Shown here piece by piece: positions 1,694-19,573 of a DNA stretch of 19,574 nucleotides (position 1 is the first letter of the stretch; the number at the start of each line of letters is the position of its first letter). Both the position numbers and the translations under genes were made by a program. The notes below the pieces were generated by a model. The model was given only the letters and a program-made list of their open reading frames with translations, did not search any database and was not told where the DNA came from. Source of the DNA: Candidatus Micrarchaeota archaeon (lineage in GTDB: Archaea > B1Sed10-29 > JAJRYS01); NCBI GenBank assembly GCA_964496415.1, contig CAZBZN010000012.1, forward strand, positions 1 through 19,574, written 5' to 3'.

Positions 1694-2704
1694 CTACCAA
1701 AACCCAGGAATTTTAACTCCACAATTAGGACAACGTGCCTTTCCTTTTTTTACTTCAAGCTTGTTTTCAACAACACTGAAACCATCACGTCTTATCAAAA
1801 GCTCTCCGCAGTTATGGCAATAAGTATTATTATACTCAGTTAACACATTACCAACATACACGTATTTTATCCCTTCATCAACAGCTATTCTTCTTGCTTT
1901 TAATAGAGTTCTAACGTCAGTTGGAGGAACATTCATCATCTTCCAAGCAGGATAAAACCTGGTAAAATGCCATGGAATATCAGGACTAAGGCTTTTTATG
2001 AACCCAGCAGCTTCTCTTATCCAATCCTCGTCATCATTATGCCCTGGAATAAGTAAAGTTATTATTTCTAAGTGCATTCCTGTCTTAAAATAATTCTTAA
2101 TGCACTCAAGTACTTTCTCATAAACTACTCCTCCACAGACCTTATCATAGTGCTCTGCGTCTCCTTTCAAGTCAATGCGTGCAGCATCAAGAAACTCAGC
2201 TGCTTTTTCAACAGCTTGAGGAGAAGCATAACCATTAGTCACAAAAACATTAAAAATGCCCTTTTCTTTAGCGATCAAACCAGTGTCATAACAGTACTCA
2301 AAAAACACTGTAGGCTCAGTATAAGTATAAGCAATAATTGGAACATTATTATCCTCAGCTGCTTTTACTACTAATTCAGGCGGTAGGTCATAATAAGGAA
2401 CTTCATCAACTCTTGCTTGTGAAATCTCATAATTCTGGCAATGAAGGCAATGAAAATTACATCCAGCAGTAGCAATACTAAAAGCATACTCTCCTGGCTT
2501 AAAATGATAGAAAGGCTTTTTCTCAATTGGGTCAACTGCTACTGAACAAGCCTTGCTATGGTTCAAAGAATAAAGCTTTCCATTAATGTTCTTCCTAACC
2601 CCACAATTACCATACTCATCATTTTTAATAACACAATACCTATTGCATAACAAGCACTGTACTACGTCATCATTCAACTTTTTGTAAAACATTGCTTCTT
2701 TCAT
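1694..2704 (-). CDS. amrS: AmmeMemoRadiSam system radical SAM enzyme (PFL-activase-like)
   Basis: MKEAMFY start, CxxC..C...G.CGVR, DPIEKKPFYHF, GCNFHCLHCQN (CxxxCxxC), YTYTEP, VTNGY, PWHFTRFYP, YVYVGNV and C-terminal CxxC pairs. Alternative GTG start at 2713. Confidence 0.92.
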   Translation of the reverse strand: MKEAMFYKKLNDDVVQCLLCNRYCVIKNDEYGNCGVRKNINGKLYSLNHSKACSVAVDPIEKKPFYHFKPGEYAFSIATAGCNFHCLHCQNYEISQARVDEVPYYDLPPELVVKAAEDNNVPIIAYTYTEPTVFFEYCYDTGLIAKEKGIFNVFVTNGYASPQAVEKAAEFLDAARIDLKGDAEHYDKVCGGVVYEKVLECIKNYFKTGMHLEIITLLIPGHNDDEDWIREAAGFIKSLSPDIPWHFTRFYPAWKMMNVPPTDVRTLLKARRIAVDEGIKYVYVGNVLTEYNNTYCHNCGELLIRRDGFSVVENKLEVKKGKARCPNCGVKIPGFW

Positions 2705-2713
2705 AAAAACCAC

Positions 2714-5965: not shown

Positions 5966-7429
5966 CTACCATGATGCGTTCACAAAAGCCCAAGTAGAAT
6001 TAATTTCTGACGAGTTATCGCAAACAATCAAAGTAACGTTGTAAAAACCTGGGCTTGAATAATTATGGTATACAGTCCATGAAGTAGTGTTATATGTAAG
6101 CCCGTCTCCGAAGTTCCAGTAATGCCATAAAATAGTTCCGTCAGGGTCATAACTTGTGTCATTGAAAACAAACAAAGAAAGATATTGCTGATGGTAAGTA
6201 AACCTAGCAACAGGTGGGACATTAGCATATGAAGATTCATTCGAAGAAACATTACCAGATTCATTAGCACCCACACTTGAAGAAGTATTAGATGTCTCAT
6301 TTAAAGAAAAATTGCCTGATTCATTTGATTCATTAAACTCAAACTGGCACTCGCCGCTAACGTTGCATACATAGCCAGCATCACATCCGCATATCGAGCA
6401 CTTCGGGACCAATGTCCCATTATCACAATACAAAGGTTTAGTCTCTGAACACTGCCCATAAGGCGTGCCATCAGAACAATATAAAATAACAGAGTTGTTT
6501 TCATAAGTAGCATTTGATGATTCTTCTTCTGACAAATTGGAATTGTAAATAACTGAATCATTAAAAGTAGAAGAGTTAAGTGACGAGTTAACAACAACCG
6601 AACTTATCAAAGTGGATGAGTTGGTCACAGAATTATTTACGTTAGAAGAATTAGTTATCGTTGAATTTTCAACAACTGAGGAATGTACTGTTGAGTCTAA
6701 TGAAATAACTGAAGAAACAACTGAAGAATTATAAACAGTTGAATTATCATGAACAGTTGAATTCACTACTTCAGAGTCATAAATAGAAGAATTAACAGTA
6801 ACAGCATTATCAACTGAAGAATTATAAACAGTTGAACTATTACTTACAAAAGAATTTGAAACATTAGAGTAATAAATTGAAGAGTTAGTAACATTAGCAT
6901 CATCAAGAGATGAGTTCTCCACTGTTGATGGGTCAACATAAGCATCAACCAAATAAGCTCCTTCAAGAGTAGAATAAAGTACAGTAGAGGATTCAATATG
7001 TGAGTTAGTAATCTGAGAACCTTCGATATAAGAACAAGACATCACCACAGTTGATCCTGAACCATAATACGTATCTGCAGACTCATACAACTCAACATAT
7101 TCTCCATCGATATAAGAATTAATTATTTTATTCTCACATTCTGATAGAGTACTTGATATTTCATCAACAGCCCCTTGTTTGCATTTAGTAACAAAAATAG
7201 AGCCCAACCCCGAGCATTCTTGTTCACAATAATCACAAGGCGCTCCGGGAGAAGTTGCTTTTTCAACAGAACACCTTGCAGCAGCTGCTTTACATGCAGA
7301 AACATCTGCTCCTTTTTTACTTACTCCAAAACTTCCAGACACAAAAAGAACTACAATAGCTGCAATAGCTAGTACTGCTGCTATTACTATTAAGTACTCT
7401 AAAGCACCTTGGAAACGCGTGCTCTCCAT
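5966..7429 (-). CDS. Class III signal peptide (pilin-like) surface protein with Ser/Asn-rich repeats, Cys-rich modules and C-terminal PKD domain
   Basis: N-terminal R-F-QGALEYL plus hydrophobic helix. Repeated V.NS/I.NS pentapeptides. CSDGT.YGQCS..KP.YC motif. PPVARF...D.SYDPDG.I....WNFGDG...H.Y..PG.Y.VTL PKD domain at about 5969-6223. Confidence 0.82.
   Translation of the reverse strand: MESTRFQGALEYLIVIAAVLAIAAIVVLFVSGSFGVSKKGADVSACKAAAARCSVEKATSPGAPCDYCEQECSGLGSIFVTKCKQGAVDEISSTLSECENKIINSYIDGEYVELYESADTYYGSGSTVVMSCSYIEGSQITNSHIESSTVLYSTLEGAYLVDAYVDPSTVENSSLDDANVTNSSIYYSNVSNSFVSNSSTVYNSSVDNAVTVNSSIYDSEVVNSTVHDNSTVYNSSVVSSVISLDSTVHSSVVENSTITNSSNVNNSVTNSSTLISSVVVNSSLNSSTFNDSVIYNSNLSEEESSNATYENNSVILYCSDGTPYGQCSETKPLYCDNGTLVPKCSICGCDAGYVCNVSGECQFEFNESNESGNFSLNETSNTSSSVGANESGNVSSNESSYANVPPVARFTYHQQYLSLFVFNDTSYDPDGTILWHYWNFGDGLTYNTTSWTVYHNYSSPGFYNVTLIVCDNSSEINSTWAFVNASW
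6718..6836. repeat. 26-bp exact direct repeat within the surface protein gene
   Basis: caactgaagaattataaacagttgaa at 6718-6743 and 6811-6836, 93 nt (31 codons) apart; both encode STVYNSSV. Confidence 0.85.
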
Positions 7430-7478: not shown

Positions 7479-8222
7479 TCACTTAACGCATACATACTGG
7501 TAAAAAACAGCATTAGGATCAAAGCCTTTTTTAAGGTCAGAGTATTGCTCTACTTCACTGAAGCCAGTATTTTTAAGAAGCTTCAAGAGTTCTCCTTTCT
7601 TGAAAGCATAATAGCGCTCCTTATAACTAGGCTTGTCGCCAATAGAAGTAATAAGACTGTCTTCCCTTAAAAAATTAATCTTTACTCTTACCGAGGAGTT
7701 ATAATAGCATGATTTTCTATTTATAAGGGACACATCTGGATTTTTCTTCAACAACTCGTAGTTTCTCTCATCAATTACAAGAACCCCCTCTTTTTTAAGT
7801 AAGGTGTAAAAATTCCTAACAGCTTTTTCCTGAGCTTCTTTGTTAAGGAGGTAAGTAAGTGAATTTCCTAAACACAGCACGGCGTCAAAGCTTTCTTTTT
7901 CAAACCTCTTGTCAAACTCAAGCCAGTTAAACCCAGTAACCTTCACTTCTGCCTTCTTGTTCTTAAGGAAGCCTTTCATCCTTTCACGTAAGAAAGGATT
8001 AAGTTCGTTAGCAACAACTTCATAGCCTTCATGATACAAGCAAGCTGCTTCAAAGCCAATGCCTGCAGCAGCATCAAGAACTCTCTTACATTTGTGTTCT
8101 TTTAAGATCCTACTTATGAACGGAACTAGTTGATTTTGCCTAGACTCATAATCCACGTAATGAATCCATACTTCTGCCATTGATTTCAGGTTCTCTATTG
8201 AATCAGCATATCCTTGATCCAT
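7479..8222 (-). CDS. Class I SAM-dependent methyltransferase, glycine/sarcosine N-methyltransferase-like
   Basis: RVLDAAAGIG (motif I), FDAVLCLGNS, GVLVIDERNY. GGTGA SD upstream. Confidence 0.8.
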   Translation of the reverse strand: MDQGYADSIENLKSMAEVWIHYVDYESRQNQLVPFISRILKEHKCKRVLDAAAGIGFEAACLYHEGYEVVANELNPFLRERMKGFLKNKKAEVKVTGFNWLEFDKRFEKESFDAVLCLGNSLTYLLNKEAQEKAVRNFYTLLKKEGVLVIDERNYELLKKNPDVSLINRKSCYYNSSVRVKINFLREDSLITSIGDKPSYKERYYAFKKGELLKLLKNTGFSEVEQYSDLKKGFDPNAVFYQYVCVK

Positions 8223-8248: not shown

Positions 8249-10660
8249 TCAAAAATGAAATATCTTTTTCTGCGCTGGGTCATCATCTGCGTTGTTTAGT
8301 CCTTCGAATATCGGCTCGCCGTATACTCCATCGTAGCCTGGTCTTATCTTGATTTTTCCTTCACGGTTCATTATTATTGCTTTTGCTATTTTTTCCTTGG
8401 TGTGTTTTCTTAGTTCTTCAAAGCTTGCTTTAAGAAGAACCGTCAGCTCTGAACCAAAAGCTGTTATTAGTTTTTCAGCCTCGTTCATGACTTTCTTAGA
8501 AGCAATGTTAGAATTCATTAAATGGCTTATTATTTCATGCAATGGCAGGAGTTTTTTGAAAGGAACTGCGTTTTCTGGGACAAATCCTTCTGGCCTGTCA
8601 GCAAGCTCTTCAACCCTATGTTCTACTCCTATGGTTAATGGTTTTCCGCATACTGGGCAAATCCCTCCAAGCTTTTCAGCTTCTTTAGGAGATAACACTA
8701 CCCCACATGCCCTATGACCATCATAATGGTACTTTCCATAAGCAGGGTCAACTTCTATAGTCATTTCTAACCCTTTCCTTGTCCTGATTGCTTTAATCAT
8801 TTCCTCATAAGACTTAACGTCAAAAATAGTTGCTTCTCTTCCAAGCCTCCAGGGATAAGGGGAATGAGCATCAGAAAAACTAACCAGAGTAATATTGTCT
8901 AATGCTGAAATCCTCCAATTCATTGCAGGGTCACTTGACAACCCAGTCTCTATTGCATGAACATATTTTGTTTTTTCCTGGAATGCTTCTTCAAGAGAAT
9001 CGAAACCGCTTTTTGAACCAAATATCCCGAACCATGGGGTCCAGCAATTATGAACTGCTCCAACATTAACAACATAAGAATGGTCTTTTTCAACCTCTAG
9101 ATTAAATACTTTGCCCTTGTATTTTTTTTTGTTAATCTTTCTTATAGGAAGATAAACATAAAATTCATCAATCCAACCATGCCTTGTTCTTCTTTTTGTC
9201 TTAAACTTCTTAAATGCTTTGTCTGATAACAAGTTAAACTTGTCTTCGAAAAAAGAAAGATTTGAAAACACATATAAATCATGATTCGCTTTAATTTTCC
9301 TACCTTTGATAAAATGTTCTCCTCTTTTATTGTATTCTTCAACTGAATCAACCGCTATTGAAGGGATTATTCCTAACCTAAAGCAAATTTGTTTCATCTG
9401 TTCTTTAATGAACGGTGAAACAGTATAACCAGCATCACCCCTCCACCAACCTCTTAATATCTCTGCTTGTTTTTCAAAAGGCAAGTACAAAGTAAACTCT
9501 GGTAATGACTTTGTAAAAGCATTTTTCTCTTTAGAAGAATAACAAAAGCCCTCAATGAAATGCATCAAATCCTTGGAATAAAAGATAAATTCAATATTTC
9601 CCTTGTCTTTATGAACTTCTTTTGGCTTAAGCCTAAACAACTCATAGGCTATGTCTTTAACGTCATCTGCGTATTCTTGTTCATTCTCATTAAAAGCAAA
9701 ACCAATCCCATCTCTTTTATTAGAATAGCCTTCTGCAAGGTAATAACCAATGAACCTCCAGAAATCCTTATCTGCTTTGACTTTGCCAAACTTACCCTTT
9801 TTAGAATAATTATTACCAACAAAAACATACTTAACATCTTTAACCTTCGTAAAACGAGGATAAAGCAATACATCTCCCACTTCCAAGTCCTTAGCAAGAA
9901 CCCATTCAGGAGAGTAATCTTCAAAATACTTCCTCTTACAAAAATCAACCTGTGAACAAATAGGGCGGCAGGTTCCTTTAGTCCAAGAACATCTTTTAAT
10001 TGATTTAATAGCATAAAAAGGATGTTCTGGAGTACAAGTTACTCCTTCTCTCATATACCATGGAATGATTTCATAAACTATTCCAGAATAATTTCTACTG
10101 AAAACTCCAGTAACTTTTCTAAAAATTCCTTTATGAGTAAGAACCTTGTCTCCTTTTGAGAGGTCGCAGATCTTCTTAGAACCAAAATTACAAACTACTC
10201 TTTCACTTGGCAAAAAACAATGTGCAGGTATCACTTCCACATCTTTTGAGGTTTCGAGAACCAAATCCATTAACTCAAGAAGTGTTCTTCCAAATATTGG
10301 TCTGCCGTCATAGTCTCTTCTTCCCCATTTGTCAAATCCTTCATTAAGCTGGTCAACTGTTTCAAAGTCAGGCGCTATCAATAATACATGCACTTTTCTT
10401 TGTTTTCCTCCTTGTGAGTACATTAAAGAAATCTCGCTTGTTAAGGAAAACAGCATACCGTTGTACTCGTAAAATCCTTCTTGAGTTCTGGAAAGTTTTG
10501 CTTTTAATTCTTCTAAGTGCTTTGGATGAGTAAAATCACCTGTGCCAAGAAGGTTTACTCCTTTTACTTTTGCTGCTTTTGAAAGATAGTCAATTGTCAT
10601 CTTTTCAGAAGTAGCTCTTGAGTACTTGCTATGCAAGTGAAGGTCAGCTATCAAACGCAT
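8249..10660 (-). CDS. endoQ: Endonuclease Q family (PHP domain + Zn finger) precursor containing an intein; 412 aa after splicing
   Basis: ADLHLHSKYSRATS, GTGDFTHP, DGRP, IPAH|CWTPW, ETGLSSDP.MNWR, SDAHS, GKYHYDGHRAC...CPVCGKPLTIGV, PGYDGVYG. C-terminal PIP-box-like QKKIFHF. Confidence 0.9.
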   Translation of the reverse strand: MRLIADLHLHSKYSRATSEKMTIDYLSKAAKVKGVNLLGTGDFTHPKHLEELKAKLSRTQEGFYEYNGMLFSLTSEISLMYSQGGKQRKVHVLLIAPDFETVDQLNEGFDKWGRRDYDGRPIFGRTLLELMDLVLETSKDVEVIPAHCFLPSERVVCNFGSKKICDLSKGDKVLTHKGIFRKVTGVFSRNYSGIVYEIIPWYMREGVTCTPEHPFYAIKSIKRCSWTKGTCRPICSQVDFCKRKYFEDYSPEWVLAKDLEVGDVLLYPRFTKVKDVKYVFVGNNYSKKGKFGKVKADKDFWRFIGYYLAEGYSNKRDGIGFAFNENEQEYADDVKDIAYELFRLKPKEVHKDKGNIEFIFYSKDLMHFIEGFCYSSKEKNAFTKSLPEFTLYLPFEKQAEILRGWWRGDAGYTVSPFIKEQMKQICFRLGIIPSIAVDSVEEYNKRGEHFIKGRKIKANHDLYVFSNLSFFEDKFNLLSDKAFKKFKTKRRTRHGWIDEFYVYLPIRKINKKKYKGKVFNLEVEKDHSYVVNVGAVHNCWTPWFGIFGSKSGFDSLEEAFQEKTKYVHAIETGLSSDPAMNWRISALDNITLVSFSDAHSPYPWRLGREATIFDVKSYEEMIKAIRTRKGLEMTIEVDPAYGKYHYDGHRACGVVLSPKEAEKLGGICPVCGKPLTIGVEHRVEELADRPEGFVPENAVPFKKLLPLHEIISHLMNSNIASKKVMNEAEKLITAFGSELTVLLKASFEELRKHTKEKIAKAIIMNREGKIKIRPGYDGVYGEPIFEGLNNADDDPAQKKIFHF
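9047..10219 (-). mobile_element. Intein (391 aa) with LAGLIDADG homing endonuclease domain
   Basis: Begins CFLPSERV; block B TPEHPF; ends VFNLEVEKDHSY...VHN followed by +1 Cys. LAGLIDADG-like FIGYYLAEG (9728-9754) and ILRGWWRGDAG (9428-9460). Removing it restores IPAHCWTPW. Confidence 0.93.
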
Positions 10661-10666
10661 GACTAC

Positions 10667-11431
10667 TCATCTTATATAAGTTAAAGGCTCATGAGAAGGT
10701 GGCTTTGGTATGGTTGCTTGCTGTGTTTTTTGGACTTCTTCTATTCTTTTTATCATTTTTTCTATTTCTTTTGCTTTTTCATCAAGTTCTTTAAAACTAA
10801 TTTTTAAACCAAGATAACTTGTTAAAACTTTTAGCACGCTTGAAGCTGCCTTTGGGTCAACGTAACTTCCATGAGTCTCACCCATCAAGCATACTCCTGG
10901 AATACCTCTTAAAGCGCCAATGCCTATTAGTAACCCTGCTGCTCCTATGATGTCACCGCCGACTTTCCCGAACAAAGCACCATGCTTTGAAAAAGTCTTT
11001 ATTAATGACTTGTCAGTTGCTGCTCCAAAAACTCTTGGTTTTTTAGGAATTCCCCTAACACCATAACCTCCAAGAGTTATTATCATGCTCGTGTTGTTTT
11101 TTCTAGCAAACTCTATAATGTCCCCGCATACCGAATACTGCCACTCTATAGTAGCAGCTTGGTCATCCCCAAGTAAAATGATTAAGTCTTTCTTTTTTTG
11201 TTTTGAATAATAAAACTCAGCCTTATGCATTGAAACAGTTCCGTCTGGAAGGATTTTCACTTGAGGAGGAAAACCAGGAGAGTAAAACTCAGCAAACTTC
11301 ACTGCTTTTAATTGTTTTACCAAATGCTCTGCAGCAAGTCTTCCTACTAAACCAAAGCCAGGAAGGCCTTCAATAAGAACAGGCTTTTTAAGCCTTGGCT
11401 TTTTTAATAATTTTATTTCATTTTTAATCAT
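10667..11431 (-). CDS. PAC2-family proteasome assembly chaperone homolog
   Basis: LIEGLPGFGLVG, ITLGGY, IIGAAGLL, CLMGET, DPKAA, C-terminal YIR; usual position downstream of nop10. Confidence 0.92.
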   Translation of the reverse strand: MIKNEIKLLKKPRLKKPVLIEGLPGFGLVGRLAAEHLVKQLKAVKFAEFYSPGFPPQVKILPDGTVSMHKAEFYYSKQKKKDLIILLGDDQAATIEWQYSVCGDIIEFARKNNTSMIITLGGYGVRGIPKKPRVFGAATDKSLIKTFSKHGALFGKVGGDIIGAAGLLIGIGALRGIPGVCLMGETHGSYVDPKAASSVLKVLTSYLGLKISFKELDEKAKEIEKMIKRIEEVQKTQQATIPKPPSHEPLTYIR

Positions 11432-11596
11432 TCAAACACCGTAAAGTGCTTTTCTTCTCTCACGCCCGTGTTTGTCTTCAGGAGAATACTTAAGTGGTTC
11501 TGGATTAAAAGTTTTCGCCCCGCATACATGACATGACTCATCAAGAGTATAATGCCCATTCACGCATTTAAGTATCTTAATTTTTTTCTCTTTCAA
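11432..11596 (-). CDS. nop10: H/ACA RNP protein Nop10
   Basis: Not in the ORF track. Hand translation (TTG start at 11596 or 11602): MKEKKIKILKCVNGHYTLDESCHVCGAKTFNPEPLKYSPEDKHGRERRKALYGV. YTL..C..CG and P.KYSPED motifs; conserved synteny. Confidence 0.9.
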   Translation of the reverse strand: MKEKKIKILKCVNGHYTLDESCHVCGAKTFNPEPLKYSPEDKHGRERRKALYGV

Positions 11597-12356
11597 ACTC
11601 AAACTCTCCTCCAGCTTTAGTTATTTCCTTTTCAATAACCTGAAGAGCTTTTTTAAGAATTAACTCTGCTTCTTTATAGTCATAAGCCTTACATTTTATC
11701 TTATACCTTGGCGCTGAAACATATTCTATTTCAGCTCCTTCTTTTACAGCTTTCTCTAAAGCTTTTTTTATCACTTCTATGCCGTCAGGAGCAAGAACCC
11801 TTATCTTCATCACTCCTTTTACTACTACTTGCTGAGGAGTTATGCTCTCCTTAGCAACCTTTACTATCTCTTTCTTCCATTTTTCAGGAAGTTTTATTCC
11901 TTTAAGTGCTTCTTCTCCTTTAATGCTTGCTGTCTCAAAACCAGAAAACACGTCATAAAACTTCCTTTCAAAAGCCTCTGTGATCTTTTCAAGCATTTCT
12001 TCATAATCTTCCTTAAGACTCTTGCTTATTCTCTCAATAAGTTTTTCTGCTTTTTTCTGCCTCTTCCACTCTTCGTTTTTCCTCTTCTCTTGGTTTTTTG
12101 AAACATCCCTAAAGGAGATGTCGATAGTTCCTTTTCTTGGGTCAACTGATTTTACTTTCCCAACTTTCATCTGTCCTTCAGACAACACGCTTCTGATGTT
12201 CTTAACCCATGAAGAAGAAATCTGAGAAATGTGAACAAACCCTTCTTTTCCAGGGTACTCTAAAAGATCAACAATAGCCCCATAATTAGTAATCCTTTTA
12301 ACTTTGGTTATTACCAATTCTCCTCTTTCAGGCCATTCTTCTTTCTTCAAAAACAC
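11577..12356 (-). CDS. eif2a: Translation initiation factor aIF-2 alpha subunit
   Basis: S1 domain WPERGELVI...YGA...L.EY..KEGFVHIS.ISS.WVKNI; KG.IDIS; PDGIEVIK; Y.SAPRY. Confidence 0.95.
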   Translation of the reverse strand: MFLKKEEWPERGELVITKVKRITNYGAIVDLLEYPGKEGFVHISQISSSWVKNIRSVLSEGQMKVGKVKSVDPRKGTIDISFRDVSKNQEKRKNEEWKRQKKAEKLIERISKSLKEDYEEMLEKITEAFERKFYDVFSGFETASIKGEEALKGIKLPEKWKKEIVKVAKESITPQQVVVKGVMKIRVLAPDGIEVIKKALEKAVKEGAEIEYVSAPRYKIKCKAYDYKEAELILKKALQVIEKEITKAGGEFEFEREKN

Positions 12357-12521
12357 TCACTCCAAAAAACTGAACTTCTTTGCAAGGATTTTTGCTTTTC
12401 CTCCTGTTGGTTCAGCTAGTTTCTTCCCACAGACTAAACAATAAACTTCACTTGCTGCGTGACTAAAGACAATCTGTTCTGAACCGCAATCATCACAAAC
12501 TACCTTCAAAAACCTTGACAT
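12357..12521 (-). CDS. rps27e: 30S ribosomal protein S27e
   Basis: Not in the ORF track. Hand translation: [62 protein letters not shown] upstream. Confidence 0.95.
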
Positions 12522-12532
12522 GCCATCACCTG

Positions 12533-12826
12533 CTAACTCTTCTTTATCTCAACAGCTTTCTTTAAATCAACCAAAGACCTCTGCTGAATCTTATTACACT
12601 CAGTGCATTGCAAGAGCAAGACGCTCTTATGAGTCTGCTTTACAGGATTTGCTTTAGCACCTACTTTACTCGTGTACCCTTTTGCTTTTTTCAAGTGTCT
12701 TTGCTGTCCTGCTGAAAGAGTTCTCTTTTTAGCAGGTGACTTCTGCATCTTCACTTTAGTTACTTTATGAACAGTGTGCTTTCTGCACTTAGGACAGTAA
12801 GTTTTTATCTCTTTAGGAACTTTCAT
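12533..12826 (-). CDS. rpl44e: 50S ribosomal protein L44e
   Basis: [22 protein letters not shown]...LQCTEC. SD GAGGTG at 12833-12838 supports ATG 12826. Confidence 0.93.
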
Positions 12827-12836
12827 CTCATGCACC

Positions 12837-13412
12837 TCAAATTATTTCAACAAACTGTTTTTCAGCAAGAATTTGGGCTTCTTTTTCAGGAAGCCTTACA
12901 ATGTCATTAGCTTTAAACGGACCAAGTTCCTTCAAGTCTGAAGAAACAAACTTTGGAATGTCTTTCAATATTCTCACAAGCACAGTATTTAAAACTTCTC
13001 CTTCATTTATTGCCTTAACTTTTTCCATTGCCTCTTCTTTTTCTTCAACCAAAACCTTGCCTTCAGCAAACTGTGAAAAAACTTTACGGTACTCTGAAAT
13101 CATTTCTAAAAGGTCATTGAAAAACTTCTTCTCAAACCCTACTAAATTAGAGTCATCAATTTCATTGTTTTTCACACTTCTAAGTGCTTTAAGAAGAATT
13201 TTCTGTTCTCTTCTTTCAAAGACTTCTTCCAAAGCCCTTTTAGCATTGTTGTAAAGCCTTAAATCCTCTTCTCTTCCAGAAGCCTCGTAATTCTTCTTAA
13301 GTTTTAAAACTAAAGCATTTGCTTGCTCATAAAAATTCTCAGGAAGCTCAACCAATTTTAAAACATCATTTCTTTCAAGCCTTTGAAACTTTCTTAGATC
13401 CTCATATTCCAT
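12837..13412 (-). CDS. GINS complex subunit (Gins51/Gins15 type)
   Basis: L...ER....L..LP.NFY...FERREQKI helical A domain, then VRILKDIP.FV..D....GPF...DIV.LP...A.IL B domain; sits between priS and rpl44e. Confidence 0.88.
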   Translation of the reverse strand: MEYEDLRKFQRLERNDVLKLVELPENFYEQANALVLKLKKNYEASGREEDLRLYNNAKRALEEVFERREQKILLKALRSVKNNEIDDSNLVGFEKKFFNDLLEMISEYRKVFSQFAEGKVLVEEKEEAMEKVKAINEGEVLNTVLVRILKDIPKFVSSDLKELGPFKANDIVRLPEKEAQILAEKQFVEII

Positions 13413-13445
13413 GCTTTAGTTTCTGTAATTCATTCTTTTTATTAT

Positions 13446-14483
13446 TTATTCAAGAACTTCAACAGCTTTCTTACATGCTAAAAACATCGCAGCATATTCT
13501 GGAAGCTCCTTAACTTCTTCTTTTCTAAAAGGACCAAAACACTGGTCTTTCAAACAAAACTCAGAAACATCTGCCAAAAACTTAACTTTTACCGGTGGGT
13601 TAAAGAAAACCACTGCATGCTTGAACGGGTTAAAAGAATCAAGGTTCTTTACAAAAGTACAAAGCAAAGAAGAACCCCCATGAATTGTTGAAGGAATCCT
13701 TATAAGTCTTGAAAGGTCAAGAGTGACACTCTGGTCAACATCAGCAGCAAGTCTTGCTTTTCTTTTAACCACATTCTTCTCAATGAGCCCCTCCAAGCCC
13801 TTAAAAAAAGAATAATTGCCTTGGCTGATCAGCTTTACTGCTTTTTCCCTGTCAGCAAAAGCCTTTGAATTACTTGTTTTTGCAATCTCTAAAGCCGTGC
13901 GTGCAATTCTCCCATACCATCCAGGAGAATCAGGAGTAGGATTCTGTTTTAAAATATACCTCACGTTAAGCTTGTTTCCTTGAACATAATCAACCATCTC
14001 CCTTCTTGCCTTAGAGTTTAAATGCCTTACAGCTTCAGAAAAAACATAAATATGATAACCACGATTACCACTGAAACTAACCTTAAGCTCTTTCTCATCA
14101 AAGCCAAAATCAGGAATAAGAAACTCTTCAATCAACTTTATAGCATCCTGCTTTGTTTTTTCCAAACAATCCTCACAAGTTAAAGTGTTATGATTGCATT
14201 CAGCATCAAACTCGAACACCAAATCAGAGCCAAGAAAACCTTTAGCTTCCATCGGCTTTTTTGAAGGAAACTCATAATAAGCAGTTGAAAAACTAGCATA
14301 AAGAGGAGCCTTGTCCACAAAAAACCTATTAAGCTCTTCTTCTGTCTTAAAACTAACATGCCTGTAATCTATTTTTTTATCATCACCAAAACCAAACTCT
14401 CTTCTTTTAAAATCAGGAGGAGCCTCAACTCCTTTCCTTAAATAATACTCCTTAAGCTTTTCTTTTATAAACTTTAAACTCAT
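13446..14483 (-). CDS. priS: DNA primase small (catalytic) subunit
   Basis: RREFGF, S.AYY..P, DLVFEFD, Zn knuckle CNH....CEDC, SGNRGYH, D..VTLDLSRLIRIPSTIHG. Confidence 0.94.
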   Translation of the reverse strand: MSLKFIKEKLKEYYLRKGVEAPPDFKRREFGFGDDKKIDYRHVSFKTEEELNRFFVDKAPLYASFSTAYYEFPSKKPMEAKGFLGSDLVFEFDAECNHNTLTCEDCLEKTKQDAIKLIEEFLIPDFGFDEKELKVSFSGNRGYHIYVFSEAVRHLNSKARREMVDYVQGNKLNVRYILKQNPTPDSPGWYGRIARTALEIAKTSNSKAFADREKAVKLISQGNYSFFKGLEGLIEKNVVKRKARLAADVDQSVTLDLSRLIRIPSTIHGGSSLLCTFVKNLDSFNPFKHAVVFFNPPVKVKFLADVSEFCLKDQCFGPFRKEEVKELPEYAAMFLACKKAVEVLE

Positions 14484-15466
14484 TTCTTCACCTTCTCCGA
14501 CTTCCTTCTCTTATAATAAGTCAACGGGTTCTTCCAAAGGCAAGTCTCGTCATTATAACACAAACCATAAGACTGAATCTTTGAACAAGAAGGAACCCTA
14601 TACTTTGTTCCTGTCTTTTCCCCATAAGCATGCTCTAAATAATACCTTGTTTTTTTCTCATTAAAGTTAGGCTGGTCCCTGAAAAAATCAACAGCCCTCT
14701 CTAAAGGCATGTTAATACTTGCAAAAAAAGTAGCTAAAACAAACCTTGAAGTATGATCTACTTTCTCACCTGACTTAAGCCTTGAAATTATTCTTTTAAT
14801 GCAAGGAGGAAAAGCAGTAGCTTCAACAGGGCCTAACTCTTCAAACAAGTCAACAGCAGAAGCCCTTTTCTTAAACAATTCTTCAGCAGTCTTAATTATT
14901 GACTCTGGAAGCTCGCTTTTCTGAACTGAAAAACCAGCCAGCTGATTATAAAAAGCAGACTTAACAAGTTTAGCAAGCTTAAACTTATCCAAAAAAACAA
15001 AGCCCTTAGAAAGCATTACATTAACCAACTTAAACTCATCACCAAAAGGAACATTGTTAGCATAATCCTGAAACCTAACCAAGAAAAAACCATCCTTGCT
15101 TTCCACTGGAAACAAAGAACGAGATACTTCTAATAACTCTTCTTCACTGCCAGTCTGAAGAAAATAGTAAACATCAGAAGACTCTGCCTCAGCAAACTTT
15201 TTAACAGCAAGCCGGTTATCACTTACTCCAACAAGCAGTTTTGCAAGAGCAAAAGAAACAACACTCTCAAACAAGACCTTATCACCTGCATTAGAAAGCA
15301 GCTTCAACCTCTCAACAGGCCTTGAAGCAGAATAAGTAAAAGCATCATTAACTCTTTCAACAGCTTTTTCAAGCAAAACTCCTGCTTCATCAAGTTTTAC
15401 TTCTCTTAGCAGTTCCTTAGCTTCTTTAGTAAAAGGATACTTGGCACAAAACAAAAGGTCAGGCAT
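14480..15466 (-). CDS. priL: DNA primase large subunit
   Basis: AKYPF..EAK at the N-terminus; FPPC, H..RF.LATF, P.FNE..TRY...H.YG, Y..PSC.....GLC....C..KNPL.YY (four Fe-S Cys). Start set to ATG 15466; 4-nt overlap with priS. Confidence 0.93.
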   Translation of the reverse strand: MPDLLFCAKYPFTKEAKELLREVKLDEAGVLLEKAVERVNDAFTYSASRPVERLKLLSNAGDKVLFESVVSFALAKLLVGVSDNRLAVKKFAEAESSDVYYFLQTGSEEELLEVSRSLFPVESKDGFFLVRFQDYANNVPFGDEFKLVNVMLSKGFVFLDKFKLAKLVKSAFYNQLAGFSVQKSELPESIIKTAEELFKKRASAVDLFEELGPVEATAFPPCIKRIISRLKSGEKVDHTSRFVLATFFASINMPLERAVDFFRDQPNFNEKKTRYYLEHAYGEKTGTKYRVPSCSKIQSYGLCYNDETCLWKNPLTYYKRRKSEKVKK

Positions 15467-15505
15467 GATAAGATTATGAAAAGAGAAAAATAAAAACAAA
15501 AGGGT

Positions 15506-18391: not shown

Positions 18392-19573
18392 CTAACTACT
18401 AAAACGTGAAAAAGAAAAAGCATGATTATCAAACAAAAAAACAGCAAATGCCAAAATGAAAACAACTAAAACTTCTGGAAAACTAAAACCAGAAGCACCC
18501 ACTACAATTAAATTAGTAGAAACCTCTTCAACAGATTTAGTAAAAAACCCATAAACTTCCTCAATAACAGGAGTAGAACTACCATTACCAACCAAATAAA
18601 CCTTAACCTTAAAATCAGTCCCAGCAGTACTATCAAAACCATTATCAAAATCACTACTCGTCAAAGTAACGCTTGTCCCACTAGCAATATTTTCGTCATA
18701 AGTAGACAAAACACTTCCATTAGCATCCAAAATTTCAACCCTATCAATATAATGATTGACATCAACACCGAAATAAACTAAAGTCAAATTAGCTAACTTA
18801 TAACCAACAGGCACACTCAAAGAGCCAGAAGCCCATGTCGCAGTAGTATTCACATATTGTAATCCTTGATTATATAATGTTTGGATTTCCTCTTGTGAAA
18901 GCGAACGATTATAAATCTTAACCTCATCAATGGAACCATTAAAATATCTGATTGTACTTCCTCTATACCTTCCTATTTCAAGAGTAATAGGAGTGTTATT
19001 CATACCCTCATAAGTTCCAGCAGTGTATTCTGTTGAACCATCAACATTAACCCCATTAAAGTAAATATGAAGCCCTGAATCCGATTTGCTTCCATCATAA
19101 GTCACCGTAATCATAGTCCACTCACCATTATTAGGATAACCTGAAGAAAACCTGCCAATCTTATTACTACTATCAGTATACAACCCTACACCAATTGCAG
19201 AATATTTCTCTGCAGCCCACACCAGCCACTCAAAATAATCAGGGTAAAAATACCTGCCTATAAGCCCCCCGCCCGTGTTACTCCAGTTATCACTTTTAGC
19301 CCAAAACACTACCGAGAAAGGCTTGTCAGTGCCATTGCCATAAGTGAATGAAAAATCATCACTATCAGACACGTTTATGAAGTCATCTACTCCATCAAAA
19401 TCATAAGCTCCACCAAACTTCCCGCTTGAATTATAAGTAGCTCCGTTAACACTGCCATTATGCCTTCCAGTTTCATCGTCAGCGTCTCCTTCAAAACGCC
19501 AGTAAGCAATCAAATTATCGTCTTTTTCAGCATAAGGAAAATCAACCTCTAACGTTCCATCTGAAATGTTGTA
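18392..19573 (-). CDS. LamG/concanavalin-like domain surface protein with C-terminal membrane anchor; partial, the frame stays open to the right edge
   Basis: LIAYWRFE...G..GGAYDFDG.DD.I...W.....TYDG...Y.NG...FNGSIDEVKIYNRSLS..EI is a LamG-3 signature; C-terminal VLVVFILAFAVFLF. No stop upstream of 19513 in this frame. Confidence 0.88.
   Translation of the reverse strand, partial: YNISDGTLEVDFPYAEKDDNLIAYWRFEGDADDETGRHNGSVNGATYNSSGKFGGAYDFDGVDDFINVSDSDDFSFTYGNGTDKPFSVVFWAKSDNWSNTGGGLIGRYFYPDYFEWLVWAAEKYSAIGVGLYTDSSNKIGRFSSGYPNNGEWTMITVTYDGSKSDSGLHIYFNGVNVDGSTEYTAGTYEGMNNTPITLEIGRYRGSTIRYFNGSIDEVKIYNRSLSQEEIQTLYNQGLQYVNTTATWASGSLSVPVGYKLANLTLVYFGVDVNHYIDRVEILDANGSVLSTYDENIASGTSVTLTSSDFDNGFDSTAGTDFKVKVYLVGNGSSTPVIEEVYGFFTKSVEEVSTNLIVVGASGFSFPEVLVVFILAFAVFLFDNHAFSFSRFSS

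Follow-up and report, generated by a model that had tools for sequence, protein, structure and literature searches.

An allele of the Mja hyp1 intein follows a predicted zinc-ligand histidine in an archaeal Endonuclease Q

The window analysed here is a stretch of 19,574 nucleotides from a Candidatus Micrarchaeota archaeon, and all of its features described below lie on the reverse (-) strand. The open reading frame at positions 8249-10660 is stop-free and encodes 803 residues, with a predicted spliced product of 412 residues. It reads as an Endonuclease Q (EndoQ) precursor, consisting of an N-extein (residues 1-147; 10220-10660), an intein of 391 residues (C148-N538; 9047-10219) and a C-extein (residues 539-803; 8252-9046). 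Profile matches provide the context of the gene: a SAM methyltransferase downstream (7479-8222) and a member of the PAC2 proteasome assembly chaperone family upstream (10667-11431). The latter belongs to a conserved archaeal row at 10667-15499, which comprises the large and small primase subunits, GINS, a probable ribosomal protein, aIF2 alpha and PAC2. Two further genes probably encode surface proteins. One is a Ser/Asn/Val-rich repeat protein (5966-7429) with a PKD domain and, by eye, a pilin-like N-terminus, and the other a LamG/ConA-like protein (18392-19573). The source genome measures 687 kb and is 91% complete. The nearest named homologue of the window protein comes from Ca. Micrarchaeota, and the intein and the EndoQ gene are contiguous and gap-free in contigs from two runs labelled hydrothermal vent metagenome.

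Judged by its PHP-domain ligands and pocket residues, the host protein is an Endonuclease Q, whose predicted activity is incision 5' of dU, dI, dX and AP sites. PfuEndoQ (PDB 5ZB8) matches both flanks of the intein, at residues 5-151 (E 1.9e-17) and 533-782 (E 1.2e-34). The TIGR00375 profile also matches both flanks, with a score below the cut-off because the intein splits the EndoQ match. The PfuEndoQ ligands H8, H10, E76, H84, H139 and D193 correspond to H8, H10, E76, H91 and H147 of the N-extein and D597 of the C-extein, and the pocket residues T142, W144, E167 and L170 to T541, W543, E571 and L574. The C-extein further contains H599 and a putative zinc ribbon, H649-x2-C652 ... C668-x2-C671. 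The first half of the ribbon is Cys-x2-Cys in PfuEndoQ, whereas here the first Cys is replaced by His, likewise in the consensus of close homologues. The C-terminus carries a PIP-box-like motif, QKKIFHF (8252-8272; see the available text of PMC4858679), and a similar motif is C-terminal in 171 of 240 homologues. PfuEndoQ (PDB 5ZB8, 7K30-7K33) shares the PHP ligands, the pocket residues and the C-terminal PIP-like motif, and its zinc ribbon has a putative counterpart here, but it is intein-free and has Ala at the position that follows the insertion site (+1). Intein-free EndoQ orthologues measure about 410-420 residues.

The residue at position -1 is His147 (codon 10220-10222). The sequence-only reading had taken this His of the PAH motif for a PHP metal ligand, and its alignment with His139 of PfuEndoQ agrees. 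In the available text of PMC5961232, His139 binds Zn and lines the lesion pocket, the H139A variant is almost inactive, and Thr142 and Trp144 belong to the lesion pocket and base-flipping loop. By this equivalence, His147 is a predicted zinc ligand that lines the pocket, and the positions of the loop residues come just after the insertion site.

An intein of 391 residues between PAH and CWTPW had been proposed from the letters, and it proves real by translation, flank matches, intein profiles and modelled fold. The Pfam profile Intein_splicing matches the insert with an E-value of 9.8e-8, slightly below the gathering score, and the TIGR01443 intein profile exceeds its cut-off in the full protein. 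The GC fraction is 0.327 in the intein vs 0.392 in the compared extein stretches. An AlphaFold model of the intein, built on a 118-row alignment, has a pLDDT of 95. Foldseek matches it to the TliVMA, PI-SceI, PhoVMA, PI-TkoII and PI-PfuI inteins with E-values of 1e-17 to 1e-10. These combine a Hint domain with a two-motif LAGLIDADG fold, as modelled here, at 12-17% identity to the present intein.

Across 127 alleles, ranging from 376 to 439 residues in a search that favoured full-length matches, C1, T63, H66, H390 and N391 of the intein are invariant (127/127). T63 and H66 form the T63-x-x-H66 motif of block B (10022-10033). Blocks F and G (9047-9121) close with His390-Asn391 and have Asn373 instead of Cys at the F4 position, which is Asn in 126/127 alleles. 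The following codon, TGC (9044-9046), encodes Cys+1, the predicted splicing nucleophile, a position held mostly by Ala, Ile or Val in intein-free relatives. The in-frame insertion, the termini, block B, the +1 Cys and the predicted Hint fold identify a putative class 1 intein. Class 3 inteins employ a Cys nucleophile in block F; this class is ruled out by the F4 Asn. Class 2 inteins have Ala at position 1, according to the available text of PMC7765530, and are ruled out by Cys1 in all 127 alleles.

The region at 9185-9778 (approximate bounds) corresponds to a LAGLIDADG homing endonuclease, as indicated by two modelled helices (intein residues 151-163 and 248-262), catalytic acidic positions and an invariant Lys. 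E163, K237 and D262 are retained in 125, 127 and 126 of the 127 alleles, and the Foldseek matches of the intein model include I-DmoI and I-SceI. In the model, the second motif almost abuts the next helix, which makes cleavage activity less than certain. Four diverged pairs of Methanocaldococcus-type alleles give an endonuclease dN/dS of 0.078-0.146. The value is 0.08 between the window and L081, with synonymous sites saturated or nearly so in the pairs of the window, and 0.6 in the closest pair, L012/L013, which has very few changes. Intein and extein identities are weakly correlated (Spearman 0.23, 7140 pairs). The window intein is nearest to P0003/P0004, while the window exteins group with P0006/L016, and P0016 and P0091 are 75% identical across the intein vs about 52% across the exteins. 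The most extreme discordant pair is an artefact of a second intein. The dN/dS values, the residue conservation and the discordance between intein and exteins are indirect signs suggestive of homing.

The sequence-only reading had regarded EndoQ as a new intein host. The novelty of the site does not survive comparison with Swiss-Prot, where Q60348 of Methanocaldococcus jannaschii ('Uncharacterized protein MJ0043; Contains: Mja hyp1 intein') already catalogues an intein there, the very outcome that the sequence-only reading had named as fatal to novelty. By sequence comparison, the insertion site is that of Mja hyp1, and the intein a hyp1 allele. The alignment of Q60348 with the window protein spans both junctions at 37% identity, and the intein is 40% identical to the allele of Methanocaldococcus sp. 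28A over 404 columns. The TIGR00375 profile matches the intein by itself; together with MJ0043, this suggested an intein-bearing TIGR00375 member. A scan with the junction pattern gave 11 matches, of which three were true (Methanocaldococcus sp. 16A and 28A and a Patescibacteria contig). A search with the 28A protein led to Thermococcus litoralis EHR78075.1, which bears the NCBI name 'Mja hyp1 intein', and to a cluster of 18 containing Q60348. The available part of the MjCyc supplement (PMC11742838) assigns MJ0043 to TIGR00375 and annotates it, in a column dated 2005, with '+Intein: aa 128-520'.

The Mja hyp1 alleles (Q60348; T. litoralis EHR78075.1) share the TIGR00375/EndoQ host and the site after PAH and before Cys-aromatic-TPW. 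They also share the termini, the approximate length, the LAGLIDADG motifs and a Cys cluster. They differ in being about 40% identical and in having exteins of the FTPW type, vs the WTPW type here; unlike the hyp1 of M. jannaschii, the present allele resides in a 687-kb archaeal genome. No statement placing hyp1 in EndoQ was found in the literature within reach of the search, with InBase and subscription journals lying beyond it. The word 'intein' is absent from the main text of EndoQ papers including PMC4858679 and PMC5961232. In the Novikova survey, neither the main text nor two of the three supplements mention EndoQ by any term; supplement file 1 may list it. RefSeq-style records of hyp1 genes (P0305-P0313, P0318, P0319) are truncated to 424-550 residues and named only 'TIGR00375 family protein', indicating that automatic annotation hides the intein.

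The intein is patchily present across the genomes searched, and the protein sets are best-match lists rather than random samples. The long homologues are the best 120 of 2078 matches, query included, and all 119 others carry an intein at this site ending in His-Asn/Cys. They include names from Micrarchaeota, Woesearchaeota, Aenigmarchaeota, Nanoarchaeota and Omnitrophota. Searches with hyp1 relatives yielded 60 further proteins, all of which end in His-Asn/Cys at the site. EndoQ was found in 47 of 61 relative genomes, five of them with the intein (one split across two contigs), and three of five genomes in the family of the source genome have it. A second set, 40 genomes from another order, gave an EndoQ match in 38 and the intein in five of these. 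EndoQ has a second intein site, after the ETGLS pocket motif and with a conserved Ser+1 (L083:1257-3632, G054:C28; P0071, P0087), and P0071 and P0087 have inteins at both sites. The source genome also has an intein-bearing family B DNA polymerase (named from motifs; L080, G000:C22:7500-12353), with a short N run inside the intein. In relatives (L077, L078, L079), a radical SAM protein has inteins within its CxxxCxxC motif; a similar gene in the window (1694-2713) is intein-free.

The Hint domain contains a Cys-rich insert of 26 residues (intein residues about 72-101; 9917-10006), located between block B and Trp106. Its residues C77, C84, C88 and C94, conserved in 122, 124, 91 and 119 of the 127 alleles, form a predicted zinc site. 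At least four Cys are present in 91 alleles and three Cys with an intervening His in 33; the cluster is missing in three. The His occurs in 33/33 three-Cys vs 22/91 four-Cys inserts, a comparison between related alleles for which a p value overstates the evidence. A further 59 alleles comprise 43 with at least four Cys, 10 with three Cys and His, one with three Cys only and five without the cluster. The catalogued hyp1 alleles also contain it. The model of the insert has a pLDDT of 92-93 and no regular secondary structure. Exchange between Cys and His is typical of structural zinc sites, and the residue pattern indicates that the insert is probably one. It presumably occupies the same Hint position as an insertion in PI-SceI. 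Accessory DNA-recognition domains are known in homing-endonuclease inteins, and the DNA recognition region of PI-SceI is such a Hint-domain insertion (PMC8966425, available text). We lean towards a zinc-stabilised accessory domain for DNA recognition, which would be new to intein structures. In the literature searched, which excluded subscription journals, no zinc-binding accessory module of inteins was found described. A related intein (36% identity) without the Cys cluster is present in a small protein (L076:1508-3040, G025:C46) that its motifs mark as IscU/NifU-like; the adjoining gene is, again by motifs, cysteine desulfurase-like.

The +1 residue distinguishes intein-bearing from most intein-free alleles. 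Ile, Ala and Val had been given as its usual identities, and they do account for 114 of the best 120 short, intein-free homologues (Ile 56, Ala 45, Val 13, with Cys in 6). The 25 intein-free loci of the 61 relative genomes have Ala 14, Ile 6, Val 4 and Cys 1. In the 40-genome set, 23 of 25 intein-free loci are readable by pattern and have Ala 20 and Ser 3. The intein-free alleles L053, L054 and L055 have Ser+1, a residue able to support splicing without co-conversion.

We placed these states on an extein tree (FastTree, 278 rows) from which the 8 residues preceding the site and the 10 following it had been removed, and whose support values are local only. Left out were two proteins and 12 loci that remained unparsed, seven short rows and four duplicate loci. 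The intein state changes at least 45 times, vs 82-102 in shuffles. Intein presence thus clusters by kinship, yet it is far from a single clade. The tree, unrooted for the intein trait, does not tell gain from loss; an occupied allele converted back by an intein-free one would leave the same pattern as gain. Of 25 independent pairs, 23.7 show Cys+1 tracking the intein, and none runs in the opposite direction. Sixteen intein alleles have an intein-free neighbour that shares at least 80% extein identity; the +1 residue of the nearest such neighbour is Ala for 12, Val for two, Ile for one and Cys for one, with Ala+1 found up to 98% extein identity. Among 11 close pairs compared, +1 differs in 10, and in six of those it is the sole change from -4 to +14. 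The sequence-only reading had seen Cys+1 as a pre-existing host allele permitting the intein; the extein tree and the close pairs make its arrival with the intein the better interpretation. The simplest reading of these alignments is that gene conversion would move the intein and the +1 codon together.

A precedent is provided by the haloarchaeal MCM-d intein, for which +1 co-conversion from Pro to Ser is published and was found to be slow (PNAS Nexus, PMC10643990). As far as the available text goes, the resemblance extends to invaded alleles that always have the +1 nucleophile, empty ones that mostly lack it, and a requirement for co-conversion. The MCM-d case concerns an essential helicase and is reported as rare, whereas the exchange here is from Ala, Ile or Val to Cys in a repair nuclease, for which the 278-row tree shows that the intein state changed 45 times or more.

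Taken together, it is very probable that this hyp1 allele after His147 is spliced constitutively and spreads by homing as selfish DNA, supplying the Cys at +1 itself. In the proposed mechanism, Cys1 would form a thioester and Cys+1 would take over the N-extein, as expected of class 1. Asn391 would cyclise, assisted by His390, to give the 412-residue EndoQ. By analogy with PfuEndoQ, the unspliced protein would be inactive because 391 residues part His147 from Thr541, Trp543, Glu571 and Asp597. The LAGLIDADG domain would cut endoQ alleles that lack the intein, close to the His codon, after which repair would copy the intein and the next codon, turning Ala, Ile or Val into Cys. Alleles missing Cys+1 would lose EndoQ; the +1 position of the host is variable, so Cys would be tolerated. 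The Cys/His insert would be an accessory subdomain that binds DNA and is held together by a structural zinc. Given the six intein-free proteins with Cys+1 among the 120, some invasions may have entered alleles with a ready Cys.

Those alleles also bear on the possibility that co-conversion plays no part, such that only rare Cys+1 alleles were invaded, or that an old intein was lost repeatedly with later changes of Cys to Ala, Ile or Val. Seven tree rows are intein-free with Cys, several near intein-bearing rows, and the missing root for the intein trait leaves room for such a history. Against it, Ala is found in intein-free neighbours at 95-98% extein identity, and Ala and Cys codons differ at two or more bases; the state changes would require many parallel multi-base changes. 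Cys is also found in 0/23 readable intein-free loci of the other-order set, though five genomes there are intein-bearing. We consider this history unlikely. The intein could also be a vertically inherited relic whose dead endonuclease retains its fold only for splicing. The Pfam profile LAGLIDADG_3 gives no match in the window protein, and little sequence follows the second motif in the model; yet E163, K237 and D262 are almost invariant, dN/dS is about 0.1, all 127 alleles fall in the narrow length range given above (with the same preference of the search for full-length matches), and intein and extein relationships disagree. A relic is thus rather improbable.

Dependence of the repair of deaminated bases on splicing, with conditional control, had been suggested as well. 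The dependence would apply to EndoQ itself; for the cell it is overstated, as the source genome also encodes UDG and NucS. NucS acts on U:G and I:T pairs, and EndoV was not found in the source genome. For such control, the Cys cluster or the Cys1/Cys+1 pair would sense zinc or the redox state and thereby gate active EndoQ under deaminating stress. The intein adjoins a predicted catalytic zinc ligand and four potential metal ligands are retained in 124/127 alleles. Conditional splicing is known for other inteins, as is inhibition by zinc (PMC7765530, available text). However, the intein is missing in 42/47 and 33/38 EndoQ-bearing genomes, including 2/5 in the source family, alleles without the cluster exist (3/127 and 5/59), endonuclease conservation fits continued homing, and UDG and NucS are present. 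Insertion at an active site is moreover the usual intein pattern. Inteins reside most often in proteins of replication and repair (61.5% for bacteria and 66.9% for archaea; PMC4760082, available text), and insertions into PHP domains have been noted for PolIII alpha. Such gating is therefore a doubtful proposition, with little chance of being correct. More speculative still is a C4/C3H module coupling zinc or redox state to splicing, and so switching the zinc-dependent EndoQ post-translationally, in lineages as far apart as vent methanogens, Thermococcus, DPANN archaea and Omnitrophota/CPR bacteria. Nothing here points to regulation of splicing, and most relatives manage without the intein.

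The comparison ties the old 'hypothetical protein' intein hyp1 to the catalytic His of EndoQ. Uncultivated archaea commonly carry members of the family, as do some bacteria, and it constitutes a large natural data set on +1 co-conversion during homing. The site itself is already known, and what is left to follow is the predicted zinc module, the Cys/His insert, which invites structure determination and measurement of bound metal. Were this insert to gate splicing, hyp1 would represent a natural metal-sensing intein useful in protein engineering.
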